Source: Dehalococcoidia bacterium (GTDB lineage: Bacteria > Chloroflexota > Dehalococcoidia > Lucifugimonadales > UBA2962). From it: a stretch of DNA of 64,000 nucleotides. Location of the stretch: NCBI GenBank assembly GCA_965250195.1, contig OZ252295.1, forward strand, positions 654,269 through 718,268. The letters are read 5' to 3'. The number at the start of each line of letters is the position of its first letter. The first letter of the stretch is position 1. A model generated the notes under the pieces. That model did not search any database. It saw only the letters and a program-made list of their open reading frames with translations, and was not told where the DNA came from. Position numbers and translations under genes: made by a program. Of this stretch, positions 9,876 to 62,071 are shown piece by piece.

Positions 9876-10069
9876 GACCGGTCCCGGGTTGGCTCTGGCT
9901 CGGGGGAGAAGGCGATGGCCATCTCGTCGTCAGCAAGTTCGAGATCGCGAAGCGGCCGAAGGACGTCCATCGCCGCCTCGAACCGGGCCTTCAAATCGGC
10001 GAACTCGGCATCATCGAGGCTGAACCCGGCCCTGTCGGTCAGGGCCTTAAAGTGGGCATCGTCCATCAT
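9872..10069 (-). CDS. small acidic helical protein, GatC/AtzG-like partner of the amidase (tentative)
   Basis: 65 aa. Its stop overlaps the amidase start. The pattern GFSLDDAEFADLKARFEAAMDVLRPLRDLEL resembles GatC/AtzG-type helper subunits. The assignment rests on pattern and position only. Confidence 0.5.
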   Translation of the reverse strand: MMDDAHFKALTDRAGFSLDDAEFADLKARFEAAMDVLRPLRDLELADDEMAIAFSPEPEPTRDRS

Positions 10070-10109
10070 CGCCTCCTATTTTCGAATATTCGACTTTTTC
10101 GAAAAGCCG

Positions 10110-11291
10110 TTACCCGTCGTGCAGTTCTCCGAAATTACGCATGGGGAACTGCCGGTAGCCGTGAGGTTCCAGTGCCGCTTCGTCAAGATCGATGCCCAGG
10201 CCCCGTCCAGAGGGAACGGCTATGTGGCCGTCTTTCACACTGAACGGCCTGTCGGCGATCTCACGGGAAACGGCGTCCAGATTGACGAAGTATTCGGTTA
10301 TCACGAAGTTGGGCATTGCCGCTGACGCATGCGCCGTGGCCGCCAATCCGATGGAGGTGCTGTTGTAGTTGTGCGGCGCGACTCCTACGAAGTAAGTTTC
10401 GGCCGTCGCTGCTATTTCACGCATCTCCAGAATGCCGCCTACGTTGCATACGTCGGGGTTGATGATGTCGGCGGCTCCCGTCTCGAAGACCCGCCTGAAC
10501 TCGAACTTGGAGTAGAGCTCCTCGCCGGTAACTACCGGGATGCGGATTTCGGACCGGGCCTCCACCAGCGCCTCCATGTTCTCTGCCAACACCGGCTCCT
10601 CGAACCAGAAGGGCTCGTAGGGCTCAAGCCCTCGGGCCAGGCGCACGGCGTGCATGGGGGCCAGTCTACGGTGCACTTCTACCAATATGTCGATGTCGGG
10701 GCCTACGGCCGCCCGAACTGCGGCGACGTTTGCGATGGCGCATCGCTCCACATCCCGGTCTATGTAAGATCGCCAGGGGCCCGGTATCGGGTCGAACTTG
10801 AGGGCACCGAAGCCCATCTCGACCGTCTCTGCCGCGCGCTCGGCAAGCTCGGAGGGTTCGGTGGCACCGCCGTACCAGCCGTTGGCGTAGACCCGGAGCC
10901 GGTCCCGTACGGGGCCGCCAATGAGGGTGGCAACAGGCGCGCTGAGGGCCTTGCCGGAGATGTCCCACATGGCCTGCTCGAGGCCGCTGAGGGCGCTGAA
11001 CAGGTCCATCGAGCCGCGCCGGGCGGCGACGTCGTCGTAGACGATCTGGGTGAAGTTCTTGATCTGCGCCGGGTCACGCCCGATGAGATAGCGTGCGAGC
11101 TGCTCGACGTGGGCGACGATCTGGGTGTCCCTATCGGACTGGGTGTAGCACTCGCCCCAGCCATGCAGGCCCTCGTCGGTGACTACCTTTACGAAGCACA
11201 GGTTTTTCGCACCGGCCCCGTACGCGGGCCCATTCGCGGCCCCGCCGCCGCCGGGGTGCACGAGAAATGTCTTGACGCCGGTAACTAGCAT
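10110..11291 (-). CDS. enolase-superfamily (mandelate racemase/muconate lactonizing; acid-sugar dehydratase-like) enzyme
   Basis: FVKVVTDEGLHGWGE, ALKFDP, PFWFEEP and GEELYS metal-ligand contexts. 393 aa. Confidence 0.8.
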   Translation of the reverse strand: MLVTGVKTFLVHPGGGGAANGPAYGAGAKNLCFVKVVTDEGLHGWGECYTQSDRDTQIVAHVEQLARYLIGRDPAQIKNFTQIVYDDVAARRGSMDLFSALSGLEQAMWDISGKALSAPVATLIGGPVRDRLRVYANGWYGGATEPSELAERAAETVEMGFGALKFDPIPGPWRSYIDRDVERCAIANVAAVRAAVGPDIDILVEVHRRLAPMHAVRLARGLEPYEPFWFEEPVLAENMEALVEARSEIRIPVVTGEELYSKFEFRRVFETGAADIINPDVCNVGGILEMREIAATAETYFVGVAPHNYNSTSIGLAATAHASAAMPNFVITEYFVNLDAVSREIADRPFSVKDGHIAVPSGRGLGIDLDEAALEPHGYRQFPMRNFGELHDG

Positions 11292-11310: not shown

Positions 11311-11709
11311 CTAGCGCTTGGTGTACTGGGGCGCTTTGCGGGCCTTTTTCAGGCCGTACTTCTTGCTTTCCTTGACCCGCGAGTCTCTCGTCAGCAATCC
11401 GGCTCTCTTCAGCGCCGGCCTGTACTCGATATCGGCAACGAGGAGAGCCCTGGCGATGCCGTGACGCAGGGCGCCGGCCTGGCCCGTCGGGCCGCCACCG
11501 GAGACTTTTGCCACAACTCGGAACTGGCCACCTACTCCGGCCACTCGGAACGGTGCGTCGATCATCTGCTGCAGGGCCCGAATGGGAAACGCCTCTTCCA
11601 CGGGCCTGCCATTGACCACGATCGGCCCACGCTCTCGATACACCCTGACCCTGGCGACGGCTTCTTTGCGTCGGCCGGTGCCGTAATAGTAAGTCTGCTG
11701 GTCTACCAA
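11311..11709 (-). CDS. rpsI: 30S ribosomal protein S9
   Basis: [16 protein letters not shown] ... [12 protein letters not shown] terminus. Confidence 0.95.
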
Positions 11710-58068: not shown

Positions 58069-58122
58069 GGCTCCGTATTTTTTGGGGCTCTCTAGTCCAC
58101 GGCTCTCTTGGGCCCCAGACTT

Positions 58123-58193
58123 TGCCCGGTGGTGTAGTGGTAGCACAGGGGCCTTTGGAGCCTCTAACCCAGGTTCGAATCCTGGCCGGGCAG
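58123..58193 (+). tRNA. tRNA-Gln (anticodon UUG)
   Basis: Hand-folded cloverleaf: acceptor TGCCCGG/CCGGGCA (U1-A72, G73), D arm GTGT-AGTGGTA-GCAC, anticodon arm GGGGC-CTTTGGA-GCCTC, and T arm CCAGG-TTCGAAT-CCTGG. CCA is not encoded directly after G73. Confidence 0.85.
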
Positions 58194-58222
58194 CACCAAA
58201 ATTCATTAACGAAGCCGAGGCG

Positions 58223-59461
58223 ATGCCAAACAACATCTATAAATTTCTGAACCCGGTACACGCACCGTCGATTGGCACTGGACGCCGGTTGCCCTCGGCC
58301 ATCGCGGCTCTGGTCGCCTTGTCCCTGGTCGTCCTGGCACTGGCGGCCTGCAGCAGCTCGCCCGCCACCGACTCGATTTCTACGAATGAAGAGGGCGCTG
58401 GAGGTGATGTAGCAGGCGGGTCGGTAGCCTCATCTGGACCCGTTGGAAAATTTGTCCTTACCGGCGAGATGGGCAATGACCGCCAGTACCACGGCGCGGT
58501 CAAGCTGTCCGACGGCCGGGTCCTGGCCGTGGGCGGCCGGGGTAAGGGCGTCAGCGAATGGCCCATAGTGCACCAGACCGCCGAGATCTACGACCCCGCC
58601 ACGGGCAGGTGGACGAGCACGGGCAGCACGCTTGAGGACCGCCAGTTCCCGACTATTGCGCTGTTGCCCGATGGCAAAGTGTTGGTCGCCGGGGGCAACG
58701 ACAACCGGCTCGTCCCCCACAAGACCTCTGAGTTGTGGGATCCGGCGACGGGCGAATGGACCATGACCGGCAAGATGCTCAAGCACCGGGAACTGGGGGC
58801 ATCGGTCGTTCTGCTCGACGGTCGCATCATAGTCACGGGCGGCAAGTCCAAGACCTTCCAGCAGCAGGCCCACGCCGAGATCTACGACCCGGTGTCTGGC
58901 GAGTGGACCCTGACGAGCGAGATGAGCATCGGTCGGGCCCTGCACACCGCCACGCTCCTATCAGACGGGCGCATCCTCGTTACCGGAGGCGGAAAAGTGG
59001 ACGGCCCTTACTACGAGACGGCCGAACTTTACGACCCGGCGACGGATAGCTGGTCGGGCGCCAGGGAAATGGGCACAGGCAGGGCTCTGCATACCGCAAC
59101 ATTGCTGTCCGACGGCCGGGTGCTGGTAGCCGGGGGAGTTGGCAAACGGTCGTCGGCGGACGTATACGACCCGGCGACCAACTCGTGGTCCGACGCAGGG
59201 GAGATGTCGATATCCCGTGCTGAACACACCGCCACTTTGTTGACGGACGGCCGGGTGCTCATAGCAGGGGGAGTGGGCAAGCGCCAATCGGCCGAACTGT
59301 ACGACTCGGTCACCAACTCCTGGCAGTCGGCCGGGGACATGAACTTCGACCGGTACCGGTATACGGCGAACCTGCTCGACGACGGACGGGTGCTGCTGGT
59401 GGGCGGTCAGAGCGCCATCGCCGTGACCGTCCTGGCCGAGACGGAACTGTACACGCCGTAG
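58223..59461 (+). CDS. Kelch-repeat beta-propeller lipoprotein (7 blades)
   Basis: ATG 58223 follows GAGG. Lipobox LALAACSSS. Seven repeats of the type E(L/I)YDPATxxWxxxxxMxxxRxxHTATLLxDGRVLVxGG. The track ORF start (58082) overlaps the tRNA. Confidence 0.85.
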   Translation: MPNNIYKFLNPVHAPSIGTGRRLPSAIAALVALSLVVLALAACSSSPATDSISTNEEGAGGDVAGGSVASSGPVGKFVLTGEMGNDRQYHGAVKLSDGRVLAVGGRGKGVSEWPIVHQTAEIYDPATGRWTSTGSTLEDRQFPTIALLPDGKVLVAGGNDNRLVPHKTSELWDPATGEWTMTGKMLKHRELGASVVLLDGRIIVTGGKSKTFQQQAHAEIYDPVSGEWTLTSEMSIGRALHTATLLSDGRILVTGGGKVDGPYYETAELYDPATDSWSGAREMGTGRALHTATLLSDGRVLVAGGVGKRSSADVYDPATNSWSDAGEMSISRAEHTATLLTDGRVLIAGGVGKRQSAELYDSVTNSWQSAGDMNFDRYRYTANLLDDGRVLLVGGQSAIAVTVLAETELYTP

Positions 59462-59540
59462 CTCCCGAAACCGACCTTGCCAGCCTCCTCAAGCGCAATT
59501 CTCGCGCGCCTTGTCCATTTAGTTGTAGTGAAGACGAGTT

Positions 59541-59816
59541 GTGGAATCTCTAACTGAAATAGAAGCTGGCCCCTGGGGAGAGTTCGAAGCCGTTCGTAGC
59601 TGGGCTATCGAGTTTCCGTTGCCAAGACCGGAGATTCCGGCATTCTGCGAAGCGCTTGAGATCGTGATCTCTGCCAAAGGCGGGGCCACCTACTACGCCC
59701 GCGATTTCCCGTCCGTAGGGACCAAACGCTGTCGATATGAGTGCCCTTGCGTTTTCATGGTCATCCGCGGAGTCTCCGCGTCTCAATGGTGTTCGACGTC
59801 GGTGACGGAGACCTAA
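59541..59816 (+). CDS. hypothetical 91-aa protein (orphan), first ORF of the low-GC cassette
   Basis: GTG start. Its TAA overlaps the ATG of the next ORF (TAATG). No family is recognised, and its coding status is uncertain. Confidence 0.35.
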   Translation: MESLTEIEAGPWGEFEAVRSWAIEFPLPRPEIPAFCEALEIVISAKGGATYYARDFPSVGTKRCRYECPCVFMVIRGVSASQWCSTSVTET

Positions 59817-60994
59817 TGAGTTTGACGGGAAACTACGCGTTAGGTGAACCGCACCTCGGACAGCATCAACTCATGGATCGGCGAACGTTGAGAAGGCTGT
59901 CGGGACAGGTACGAAGCGTCATTGAAACTGCTGTGGGGATCGTGGAAGGAAGCGCACTCGACCTGTTTAATCCCTTCGGTTATGTCGAGTTGCCTAAAGC
60001 TCACTCCCTTCTACAAACCATTCATTTCAATGGCCGGTCATTATTAGCATCTGCGCGTGACAAAGAATCGACGGACTCGATTTCAGCCTTCCGCGTAATG
60101 GCAAGGACCTACAATGCCGCTTCCTCGGAGCCCGTACTGAACTCCGACATTGAACACTTGGTAGCACTACTTACCGTCCTAGTTGGGCAGTCAGTGAAGC
60201 AGGGGCACATCGAGTGGCCTCGGGGCCAGAACCGTCAACTGCTCTATTCCGGCCCACGTCAAGTCAAGTCGTTCTATCCAGGCCGCCGTTATCTGTACCC
60301 AGATCCTTCTGGCACCTATTCGACTGACGTGACAAGTACAGCCCAGACCGCGCTGGAAATTCTAGCGAAGACCTCCGTAAATCAAAATCCTAGCTTGTGG
60401 CGTGCGATCCTTGCCTACTCAAGCGGCATTTCCCTGCACAGCAAGGAGCCAACCCTAGCTTCTGTGGCATTTATTGCAACCCTGAATAGTCTCGTGGAAA
60501 AAAAGCACTGCCCCGGCAAGGTCACATGTTCAGAATGCGGTGCGAGGCCATCTCACCCGGAGCCTAGTGAACCGAACGCAGTGGCAAACTCGATGATTAA
60601 GGATCTCTCCATCGAAGGGGACGATGCCGGGCGTGTTACACGGCTATTGAAGCGCGTCTACAGAGAACAACGCTCTGCTTACGTCCACGACGCCGTGCTT
60701 CGACACTCAGAGTTGGGCCAAGGGCGAGGAGGGGCAACAATGAGGCCGTCAACTGGCAGCATTAACAGCGACGGCCTGCTCTCCGCGGATGACCTCATGT
60801 CGATTAGCCACCTGGCAAGACGAGTATTGTTAGTTCGACTCAGTCCTTTAAGCGATGGCGTTAGTCAAATACAGGAGCGGCTCGGCAACCATCTCTTTCT
60901 AAGCAGCGGAGTTGGGAGCTTGATCTCGATTGGCCGCCAGCCGACAGGCCTCAGGCTGCCGGAAGTCGTACGCAATGGCTATCCCATTCATTAG
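59816..60994 (+). CDS. hypothetical 392-aa protein with C-terminal HEPN-like Rx4H motif (orphan)
   Basis: ATG 59816 lies 5 nt after GGAG. It is a long ORF in an AT-richer segment. It has HCPGKVTCSECG, then LLKRVYREQRSAYVHDAVL. Alternative in-frame starts are GTG 59741 and ATG 59786. Confidence 0.6.
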   Translation: MSLTGNYALGEPHLGQHQLMDRRTLRRLSGQVRSVIETAVGIVEGSALDLFNPFGYVELPKAHSLLQTIHFNGRSLLASARDKESTDSISAFRVMARTYNAASSEPVLNSDIEHLVALLTVLVGQSVKQGHIEWPRGQNRQLLYSGPRQVKSFYPGRRYLYPDPSGTYSTDVTSTAQTALEILAKTSVNQNPSLWRAILAYSSGISLHSKEPTLASVAFIATLNSLVEKKHCPGKVTCSECGARPSHPEPSEPNAVANSMIKDLSIEGDDAGRVTRLLKRVYREQRSAYVHDAVLRHSELGQGRGGATMRPSTGSINSDGLLSADDLMSISHLARRVLLVRLSPLSDGVSQIQERLGNHLFLSSGVGSLISIGRQPTGLRLPEVVRNGYPIH

Positions 60995-61006
60995 AAAAAC
61001 GGTCGC

Positions 61007-62071
61007 TTGAATTTAGCAGAGTTGAAGAAGTCCTCTGGGCCTCAAAACGGCCACCTCTATGGACTCCTGAAGCGCAACTCGCGGGCGTTTTATCTGACGC
61101 TGCGGGTGCTGCCCGGCGCGCTGCGGGCGCCGGTGGGGCTGGCGTACCTGCTGGCCCGGGCGGCGGATACGATTTCTGATTCTCGTGCCATCCCCTCCGA
61201 CCGGCGCCTGGCCCATTTGCTGGCGTTCCGTGCGCAGGTCGCCGGTCCGGTGTCGCAGGCCGCGCTCGATGCCATCTCCGGCGACCTCGTCGACTCACAA
61301 GCGTCAGCCGCCGAGGCCGACTTGCTGCGGTCGCTTGTTCCGATCTTTTCGGAGCTGGACCGTACGGACGAGGCCGACCGGGGCCGGATTCGCGCGGTCG
61401 TGACCACGCTGACCGAGGGCATGGAGATGGACCTGGCCGGCTTTCCCGCTGGCGAAAAAAGTGAACTGACTGCCCTGCCCGATGCTGCCATGCTGGACCG
61501 CTATGTCTACCTGGTCGCGGGCTGCGTGGGGGAGTTTTGGACGGAGATGTCGGTCGCCCACACCCCCTCGCTTGCCAATTGGGACGTCGAGGCGATGTCA
61601 GGAACCGGCGTCCGGTTCGGCAAGGCGTTGCAACTGACCAACGTGCTGCGCGACGTACCCGCCGACCTGCGCAACGGCCGCTGCTACCTGCCGCTCAACG
61701 AATTGGCGGCGCTGGACCTTACTCCGCAGGACCTTATCGACGCCAGCGTCTCCGACCGGGCACGCCCGGTGCTCGGTGCCTGGGTCAACGTTGCCCTGGA
61801 ACATTACGCACAGGCGGAAAGCTACGTCCTGGCCATTCCCCGGCGCGAGAGGCGGCTCCGGCTGGCCGCGCTGTGGCCGGTGCTGATGGGCCTGCAAACC
61901 CTATCGATATTGGCCAATCAACGGGATTGGCTGGCGCCCGGCCATCCGGCGAAAGTTTCGAAAAATTGGGTCTACTGGATGATGGCCCGGTCGGCCGTGG
62001 TTGGCTCCTCCGACGCGCTCGTCTCGCGCTGGATCGCCGGCCTGCGGCGGCGCGTTGGCGCGGCAATCTAG
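61007..62071 (+). CDS. squalene/phytoene synthase family protein
   Basis: LLKRNSRAFYLTLRVLPGALRAPVGLAYLLARAADTISD and LQLTNVLRDVPADLRNGRCYLP match the two substrate-binding regions of the family. TTG start. Confidence 0.75.
   Translation: MNLAELKKSSGPQNGHLYGLLKRNSRAFYLTLRVLPGALRAPVGLAYLLARAADTISDSRAIPSDRRLAHLLAFRAQVAGPVSQAALDAISGDLVDSQASAAEADLLRSLVPIFSELDRTDEADRGRIRAVVTTLTEGMEMDLAGFPAGEKSELTALPDAAMLDRYVYLVAGCVGEFWTEMSVAHTPSLANWDVEAMSGTGVRFGKALQLTNVLRDVPADLRNGRCYLPLNELAALDLTPQDLIDASVSDRARPVLGAWVNVALEHYAQAESYVLAIPRRERRLRLAALWPVLMGLQTLSILANQRDWLAPGHPAKVSKNWVYWMMARSAVVGSSDALVSRWIAGLRRRVGAAI

Follow-up and report, generated by a model that had tools for sequence, protein, structure and literature searches.

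A frameshifted gene for a putative HEPN-type RNase in a horizontally acquired insert of a Dehalococcoidia genome

What is the short AT-rich islet that separates a Kelch lipoprotein gene from a squalene/phytoene-synthase-like gene in a Dehalococcoidia bacterium, and what does it encode? The locus lies in a 64,000-nucleotide (nt) stretch of contig OZ252295.1 (assembly GCA_965250195.1), which we call the window and from whose first letter positions are counted. A sequence-only reading of this DNA had noticed two open reading frames (ORFs) in the islet, one of 91 amino acids (aa) starting at a GTG (59541-59816, ORF91) and one of 392 aa starting at an ATG (59816-60994, ORF392). They were taken for a translationally coupled pair of orphan genes, acquired horizontally and forming a two-component conflict module, whose larger protein would carry the Rx4H motif of HEPN ribonucleases (RNases). 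Both ORFs are present in the sequence, as are the TAATG overlap at their junction (59814-59818) and the GGAG that precedes it (59807-59810). Our analysis leads to a different account. With a probability of roughly 0.6, the islet is a 1,555-nt acquired insert that holds one gene for a HEPN-like RNase with a toxin or defence role, and this gene is frameshifted in the copy seen here.

The first step is to ask how many genes the islet contains. An exhaustive phmmer/HMMER search over 1.84 billion representatives, with clusters at 50% identity, recovers 113 homologue clusters (best E 7.6e-50, with 34% identity), of which 87 reach E <= 1e-10, and the proteins are thus not orphans. A word-indexed protein search returns only the query itself, and the same kind of search with the family alignment returns four proteins, the window's own among them. 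The full-length homologues are single ORFs, mostly of about 470-500 aa, and they are collinear with ORF91 followed by ORF392: ORF392 residue ~20 corresponds to roughly residue 110 in the homologues, and the homologue N-termini (...LPEFCQALEAVV..GG.FYWP...TRCRYDW...) match ORF91 (...IPAFCEALEIVISAKGGATYYARDFPSVGTKRCRYE). A hidden Markov model (HMM) of the family matches both frames of the window, with an E-value of 1.4e-13 in the frame of ORF91 and of 3.7e-105 in that of ORF392. Homology extends up to RCRYE in the first frame and from PLRFHGHPRSLRVSMVFDV onward in the second. Because the second frame has a TGA at 59738-59740, the shift lies at or after position 59741, and the break falls after codon 67, at ~59743/59744. 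Restoring a single G yields RCRYEW-PLRFHGHPRSLRVSMVFDV and a 484-aa protein that is collinear from end to end with 56 full-length homologues. On this evidence ORF91 and ORF392 are almost certainly one gene with a 1-nt deletion. Its N-terminal part would occupy 59541-59743 on the plus strand (ORF91 frame, from the GTG to ...TKRCRYE(W)). The putative frameshift site is the TGCCC at 59742-59746 of the same strand, formerly TGG CCC if one G was lost, and the rest of the gene would run from 59744 to 60994, also on the plus strand, in the -1 frame; this part takes in the whole of ORF392 and ends with the TAG stop. The TAATG overlap is then a by-product of the frameshift. Programmed -1 frameshifting was considered and rejected, as there is no slippery heptamer at 59736-59746.

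Judged from its sequence, the gene in the window is probably no longer active, unless an assembly error has produced the deletion. It is rather unlikely, though well worth weighing, that the frameshift arose in the assembly or its consensus and that the genome encodes an intact and functional 484-aa protein. Apart from the missing base, the 484 codons are open throughout and every invariant residue of the family is kept, which also speaks against a long-dead pseudogene. Moreover, the contig is 2.65 Mb long and several related metagenome-assembled genomes (MAGs) are single-chromosome assemblies, suggesting long-read data. However, the base was lost from a 2-nt run and not from a long homopolymer, and six neighbouring genes align to those of relatives as unbroken single segments, so that the local consensus looks accurate.

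How did this gene come to lie between the Kelch and synthase genes? Relatives of the locus were gathered by scanning one genome per species with the downstream synthase-like protein, which led to Dehalococcoidia MAGs; the closest one available shares 77-88% protein identity with the window. Eight of these MAGs (L001-L006, L011 and L012) keep the local gene order, at minimum the Kelch, synthase and phosphotriesterase-like genes and, where detected, the upstream genes for a MoxR-like ATPase and a FAD protein. In all eight, the synthase gene follows the Kelch stop within 30 nt, and the family HMM finds no copy of the islet gene in any of 20 related loci. Since the Kelch gene directly abuts the synthase gene in these eight syntenic relatives, the islet is, with little doubt, a horizontally acquired single-gene insertion at the Kelch/synthase junction. 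The inserted DNA spans 59509-61063 on the plus strand (1555 nt; GC content 0.541 versus 0.63 and 0.66 in the flanks), has no counterpart in the eight relatives, and is made up of a 32-nt leader, the single gene, and a 69-nt trailer.

The junctions themselves bear the trace of this event. Directly after the Kelch stop, the window retains the original synthase start (...DLASLLKRNSRA) and then switches to AT-rich DNA, while the synthase gene resumes 1,579 nt downstream with a second copy of the same sequence (LLKRNSRAFYLTL...). A repeat search describes the two copies as a flanking direct repeat of 31 nt with 77% identity and a spacing of 1579. The left copy (59485-59515, plus strand) is what was once the 5' end of the synthase gene, now orphaned, and still reads LLKRNSRA in that frame; the right copy (61064-61094, plus strand) is the functional synthase 5' region, reading LLKRNSRAFY. 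Over the 24-nt core of the repeat 20 positions match, a score not equalled in any of 2000 shuffles of both junction regions, and the four differences between the cores are all at synonymous third-codon positions. The left copy adjoins sequence that in the relatives continues directly into the synthase gene. Such a duplicated gene start is the signature of an insertion, and flanking direct repeats derived from the target are a trait of integrative genomic islands. In the window the synthase-like gene now runs from 61007 to 62071 on the plus strand (Pfam SQS_PSY, E 6e-53). Its first ~19 codons (TTG 61007 ... HLYG) come from the inserted DNA, and the synthase proteins of the relatives match it from residue 14-20 onward only.

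Base composition agrees with a foreign origin. In 300-nt windows, GC content falls from 0.64-0.66 in the flanks to 0.51-0.57 across ~59500-61000, and the three lowest 1-kb windows of the entire 64 kb lie in the islet (0.538-0.543, for a mean of 0.630 and a standard deviation of 0.025). GC content at third codon positions is 0.573 in the islet gene versus 0.782 +/- 0.061 in 55 other long ORFs, mechanically chosen (z = -3.4). The islet is the strongest compositional anomaly of the window. The sequence-only reading was therefore right on its AT-richness and on its horizontal acquisition: the cassette is missing at the same junction in eight relatives, target sequence is duplicated at its flanks, and its composition departs from that of the surrounding DNA.

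Apart from its gene, the insert is bare. ORF and Pfam scans find no recombinase or integrase in it, the single gene being its sole content. It contains no Rfam family and no tandem repeats, and the signals for an RNA antitoxin, a promoter or a terminator do not rise above background. Two known routes of entry were considered and set aside. An integron gene cassette is rejected for want of an attC-like hairpin, as the predicted folds of the two strands of 60985-61095 have z-scores of -1.05 and -0.14 relative to shuffled sequence; nor is a GTTRRRY core seen by eye at the 3' end of the insert. The tRNA-Gln at 58123-58194 is rejected as an integration site since it lies upstream of the Kelch gene, 1.3 kb from the junction, and is also present in the relatives.

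What does the gene encode? Residues are numbered here on the reconstructed 484-aa protein. In an alignment of 57 sequences, C324, C330, H339, R378, S379, H383 and P403 are invariant, and C333, G334, V382, A385 and R427 are conserved at 90% or more; R378, S379 and H383 also reach at least 90% across 111 sequences. Two elements stand out. The first is a C-x5-C-x2-C-x5-H knuckle (C324, C330, C333 and H339; 60509-60556, plus strand), predicted to be a zinc-binding beta-hairpin. The second is R-S-A-Y-V-H (R378, S379 and H383; 60671-60688, plus strand), a candidate HEPN Rx4H catalytic motif within the conserved block Q-R-S-[AS]-[YF]-V-H-[DG]-A-x-L-R-H. Both had been described correctly, the former as the Cys/His cluster HCPGKVTCSECG and the latter with its Arg at 60671-60673 and its His at 60686-60688. 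A single Rx4H is poor evidence, since 74% of shuffles of the window protein contain at least one. The motif is meaningful because it is invariant across the family and not by its mere presence; the Arg/His pair, whose conservation in homologues the earlier proposal depended on, is retained in all 57 sequences.

Libraries of known families are silent. ORF91 and ORF392 have no match in Pfam, PADLOC, NCBIfam or PHROGs, and no recurring Pfam family is matched by any of the 111 family members even at E <= 10. Each of the ten clusters examined comprises one or two sequences, unnamed or labeled "hypothetical protein". Judged by its sequences, this is a rare and uncatalogued protein family that belongs to no named HEPN family. 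The membership of ApeA-, AbiD/F- or Csm6-like groups that had been suggested is not supported, since the HMM, profile and fold searches gave no match to them.

Structure prediction gives a more positive picture. The AlphaFold2 model was built from the 111-sequence alignment with a full-length homologue as target (P0003, ~33% identical to the window protein), and it reaches a predicted local distance difference test score (pLDDT) of 95.2 and a predicted template modeling score of 0.91. Ten beta-strands lie within residues 19-189. The first module (19-135) consists of strand 19-27, helix 29-45, strands 49-55, 60-71, 74-86 and 91-100, and helix 114-135, that is, beta-alpha-beta4-alpha, in the order of the TBP-like fold. 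A second module (140-214) is beta4-alpha. The C-terminal domain is helical, with helices 281-296 and 301-313, a beta-hairpin at 325-333, helices 341-353 and 357-381, a loop, and helix 407-429. The hairpin (strands 325-327 and 331-333) carries the Cys/His ligands of the knuckle and lies between core helices 2 and 3, and RSAYVH (375-380) sits at the C-terminal end of the long helix 357-381, before the loop and the last helix.

The HEPN core is described as two alpha-hairpins, and its hallmark as a conserved Rx4-6H in which a polar residue directly follows the Arg (PMC3710099). The family has this motif, with a Ser as the polar residue, and the P0003 model has the HEPN order of secondary-structure elements, order being all that is compared here. 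The C-terminal domain is thus predicted to have the published HEPN layout: an H1-H2 hairpin, an insert made of the knuckle hairpin and helix 341-353, H3 with R-S-x3-H, a loop, and H4. It is mainly because the model fits the published description point by point that we accept the HEPN idea and consider the family to be, on balance, a HEPN-type RNase. Beyond this order of elements, we infer the HEPN fold in three dimensions, the RNase activity and the defence role.

The surroundings of the gene elsewhere bear on that role. The gene stands alone in all 15 independent loci, none of its neighbours being conserved among them, and its GC content is below that of its surroundings in nine of the ten loci measured (0.57 versus 0.71-0.77 in L029, 0.36 versus 0.59 in L028, 0.56 versus 0.66 in L022, and 0.36 versus 0.41 on a Vibrio plasmid, with no difference, 0.476 versus 0.47, in L021). 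Recognised defence or toxin-antitoxin genes lie near it in four of the 15 loci, namely L021, L033 and L042 (within two genes) and L032. These neighbours are GmrSD_N and SLFN_AlbA_2 in L021; HEPN_AbiU2, SEC-C, SLFN_AlbA_2 and TIR in L033; and HEPN_RiboL-PSP and an HTH_3 protein in L042. L032 is a conjugative Vibrio harveyi plasmid; there the gene has a resolvase on one side and RelE/Phd on the other, and the accessory region that holds it also encodes HigB, a restriction endonuclease and an Abi protein. In L035 the gene adjoins a large-serine-recombinase element. No partner or antitoxin gene is conserved beside any homologue, so the partner assumed by the sequence-only reading is not supported, and the two distinct genes conserved as a pair that define type II toxin-antitoxin systems are not found. 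Its suggestion of a conflict role is made plausible by the context in the four loci, with the other 11 giving it no help, and a defence or toxin role is for us a tentative assignment, close to an even bet.

One other locus suggests how the gene may insert. In L022 it lies between convergent housekeeping genes (DUF192 and purH-like), flanked by a perfect 10-nt direct repeat, CCGGCCTAGT, at 9912-9921 and 11468-11477; 51 of 2000 shuffles score as well. The CTAG core of this repeat is the stop codon of both neighbours, regenerated. The arrangement resembles a target site duplicated where two stop codons overlap, which would be a second, weaker case of target duplication. Across the loci, no conserved cassette ends or terminal inverted repeats were seen. 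Two further observations can be added on individual loci. SLFN_AlbA_2 proteins stand beside the family gene in the unrelated L021 (2048-3496) and L033 (10080-11381), once upstream and once one gene downstream, which may reflect either a loose functional link or coincidence inside defence islands. In L037 the neighbours (a DUF5591/TGT_C2/PUA protein and a trp operon) look archaeal, and the ATG of the family gene overlaps the last 8 nt of an upstream Glu_synthase-like gene (1614-1621), which places the stop codon of that neighbour inside the putative insert.

Several results weigh against the HEPN RNase and defence account. At the level of sequence, no HEPN-clan Pfam match appears among the 111 members at E <= 10, and the family matches no PADLOC, NCBIfam or PHROGs model; a profile search of the PDB sequences is empty, and a single-protein PDB search gives nothing meaningful. 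At the level of structure, Foldseek with the full-length P0003 model (the whole 471 residues as query) finds no match at E <= 1e-3 in PDB or BFVD, and there is no HEPN protein, RnlA included, among the 50 matches listed. The weak matches include Bet v1, START, CENP-N, Aha1 and BamC-N, and they cover the N-terminal module only; the best of them (E 0.03-0.2) are helix-grip proteins, which are classed with the TBP-like fold. Compared by hhalign with the toxin RnlA, whether as one sequence, as a profile or by domain, the family stays below 1% probability: with profiles, 0.4% over the full length, 0.7% between the C-terminal domains and 0.25% between the N-terminal ones. The only alignment reported from that comparison is not significant, and it has both Rx4H motifs in register. 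The HEPN layout is judged from the order of secondary-structure elements and not from helix packing, the modelled protein is a homologue of ~33% identity and not the window protein, and ORF392 modelled from its single sequence reaches a pLDDT of 33.6. The acidic residue found in helix 2 of many HEPN families is not conserved. As to biology, the window copy is frameshifted, and 11 of the 15 contexts are housekeeping or uninformative. Neither 50,697 phage records nor an IMG/VR pattern scan yielded a homologue, so that nothing ties the family directly to phage biology; a locus search with a 9-sequence alignment returned five metagenome loci and no viral ones. The HEPN assignment of the sequence-only reading thus holds in part: a four-helix, HEPN-like order is present in the pLDDT-95 model, but no HEPN model of PADLOC or Pfam matches, Foldseek has no HEPN protein among the matches listed, and neither a HEPN profile nor a solved structure is matched significantly.

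These negatives leave room for another function, in which the knuckle and the Arg/Ser/His residues would serve a DNA nuclease or a recombination protein that aids its own spread. This would explain why the gene always occurs as a naked single-gene insert with a duplicated target. It is consistent with the lack of a sequence or fold match to any HEPN family, with inserts that are solitary and very tightly bounded, with direct repeats flanking the gene both in the window (24-31 nt) and in L022 (10 nt), and with the absence of a recombinase within the insert. We consider it unlikely. Repeats of 10 nt in one case and 24-31 nt in the other differ from what a transposase with a fixed stagger would produce, and the loci share no terminal sequences or inverted repeats. 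The clusters examined contain one or two sequences on one to few contigs, with no multi-copy genomes, unlike active mobile elements, and the position of the motif fits HEPN well.

The two remaining alternatives fare far worse. The real TAATG overlap, with its GGAG 4 nt upstream, and the translation of ORF392 that is still possible in principle from ATG 59816 would suit a two-component module in which ORF91, a small modulator or antitoxin, and ORF392, a large HEPN toxin, are separate coupled proteins; this is most improbable, as every full-length homologue is one ORF spanning both parts, the break interrupts RCRYE|W, a conserved beta-strand motif in the first alpha/beta module, one added base restores a collinear protein, and no homologue in the loci examined has a small upstream partner. 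That the gene is native to the lineage, lost from the relatives and low in GC because of its function could appeal to the 77-88% identity of the closest relative (closer genomes being unsampled) and to a family that is AT-rich relative to its hosts in most loci, possibly intrinsically, but it hardly deserves credit: it needs a precise deletion restoring a seamless Kelch-synthase junction in each of eight relatives, the window carries the insertion signature of a duplicated synthase 5' end, and the family is scattered over unrelated hosts with GC contents from 0.41 to 0.77, a Vibrio plasmid, and the locus with archaeal-looking neighbours.

Keeping to an acquired gene for a HEPN-like RNase, a working model can be proposed. 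The insert would have landed at the Kelch/synthase junction, duplicating 24-31 nt of the synthase 5' end. The intact protein would dimerise through its C-terminal HEPN domain, and the dimer would form a composite, metal-independent RNase site from the Arg and the His. The N-terminal TBP-like modules may bind the substrate RNA or sense a trigger. The enzyme would act on its own as a toxin or abortive-infection effector, without a separate antitoxin. Because there is no antitoxin gene, it would have to restrain itself until activated, as do the single-protein HEPN systems ApeA and DARNA. More speculatively, and with long odds against it, the family could be a stand-alone type of RNA-targeting immunity or toxin that spreads among bacteria, and probably archaea, as a naked, recombinase-free cassette of ~1.55 kb duplicating 10-30 nt at gene boundaries. 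Such a protein would combine tandem TBP-like modules for sensing or RNA binding, a zinc knuckle and a HEPN core, and the duplication would leave the genes on both sides intact. If true, this would imply a route of insertion not yet described for defence genes.

The genes on either side of the insert call for a few remarks of their own. In several relatives the open frame of the synthase gene lacks any ATG, GTG or TTG between the Kelch stop and the conserved LL(K/R)R(N/T)SRAFY (L001:4300-4420, L002:9950-10060 and L012:9950-10060; compare 59462-59515 of the window). The native synthase gene may use a non-canonical start or rely on coupling to its Kelch neighbour; in the window, an in-frame TTG (61007 or 61022) comes with the inserted DNA. 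The synthase homologue of L012 aligns as two overlapping segments (10001-10204 and 10066-11004), which points to either a frameshift or a locally duplicated stretch in this MAG. On the other side, at 58082-58230 of the window, the mechanical 459-aa ORF of the Kelch lipoprotein begins within the tRNA-Gln(TTG), so that the true start must lie downstream of the tRNA, near MPNNIYKF... and the lipoprotein signal region. The 3' part of the Kelch gene contains a 135-nt tandem repeat (59093-59341, 1.8 copies, 75% match), which reflects neighbouring Kelch blades, as is usual in that domain.

For the annotation of this genome, the practical message is that the "gene pair" is in all likelihood one gene broken by a frameshift. 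Since Pfam, NCBIfam, PADLOC and PHROGs all miss the family, a model of it is worth building. The insertion provides a clean natural case of a single gene placed in an operon junction with duplication of a gene start, which makes it helpful in work on the movement of solitary defence genes. Should the HEPN reading hold, this would be an uncatalogued family of single-protein RNase effectors, with an RnlA-like sensor architecture but without an antitoxin, and it would join ApeA, DARNA and the few other HEPN defence proteins that regulate themselves.

Among known systems, the closest architecture is that of RnlA and LsoA (RNase LS; the type II RnlAB and LsoAB anti-phage systems). RnlA consists of two successive TBP-like domains and a C-terminal HEPN domain with the catalytic R318-x4-H323, and its TBP1 domain binds the substrate (PMC8266594). 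Similarly, the family model has a beta-alpha-beta4-alpha module, a beta4-alpha module, and a helical domain with an invariant R-x4-H, and both families are found on mobile or accessory DNA. Unlike RnlA, however, the family shows no detectable sequence relationship: the RnlA_toxin_N, RnlA_toxin, RnlA-toxin_DBD and HEPN_RnaseLS models match E. coli RnlA but none of the 111 members. The family proteins are also ~120 aa longer, carry the CCCH knuckle between helices 2 and 3, and lack the conserved R255/E258 pair of RnlA. No RnlB/LsoB-like antitoxin lies downstream of the gene in the 15 loci, and in the window the next gene, 13 nt past the stop of the family gene, is the host synthase gene.

ApeA offers a second comparison. 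It is a single protein whose C-terminal HEPN domain is split by insertions, some homologues bind a structural Zn2+, and it has no partner gene, its activity being gated by the N-terminal region (bioRxiv 10.64898/2026.01.26.701840). The family resembles it in being a self-contained single protein of roughly the same size class, without a partner gene, and in the insert of its predicted HEPN domain. In contrast, ApeA monomers are predominantly alpha-helical by cryo-EM, the N-terminal domain being catenin-like and the middle one PafA-like (bioRxiv 10.64898/2026.01.26.701840), whereas the N-terminal modules of the family are predicted to be beta-sheet-rich and TBP-like. No family member matches HEPN_Apea or ApeA_NTD1 (Pfam) or ApeA (PADLOC).

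As to the HEPN superfamily at large, the family differs from its known members in matching no existing HEPN model, in lacking a conserved acidic residue in helix 2, and in having a Ser where the polar residue is usually Asn, Asp or His. Solitary cassette forms such as the integron-cassette HEPN protein (PDB 3JRT) belong to the superfamily too, and the insert of the window differs from an integron cassette in having no attC-like hairpin. With the superfamily (PMC3710099), the family nevertheless shares the Rx4H followed by a polar residue and an insert between helices 2 and 3, as well as its occurrence on mobile DNA, beside restriction, toxin-antitoxin and Abi genes.

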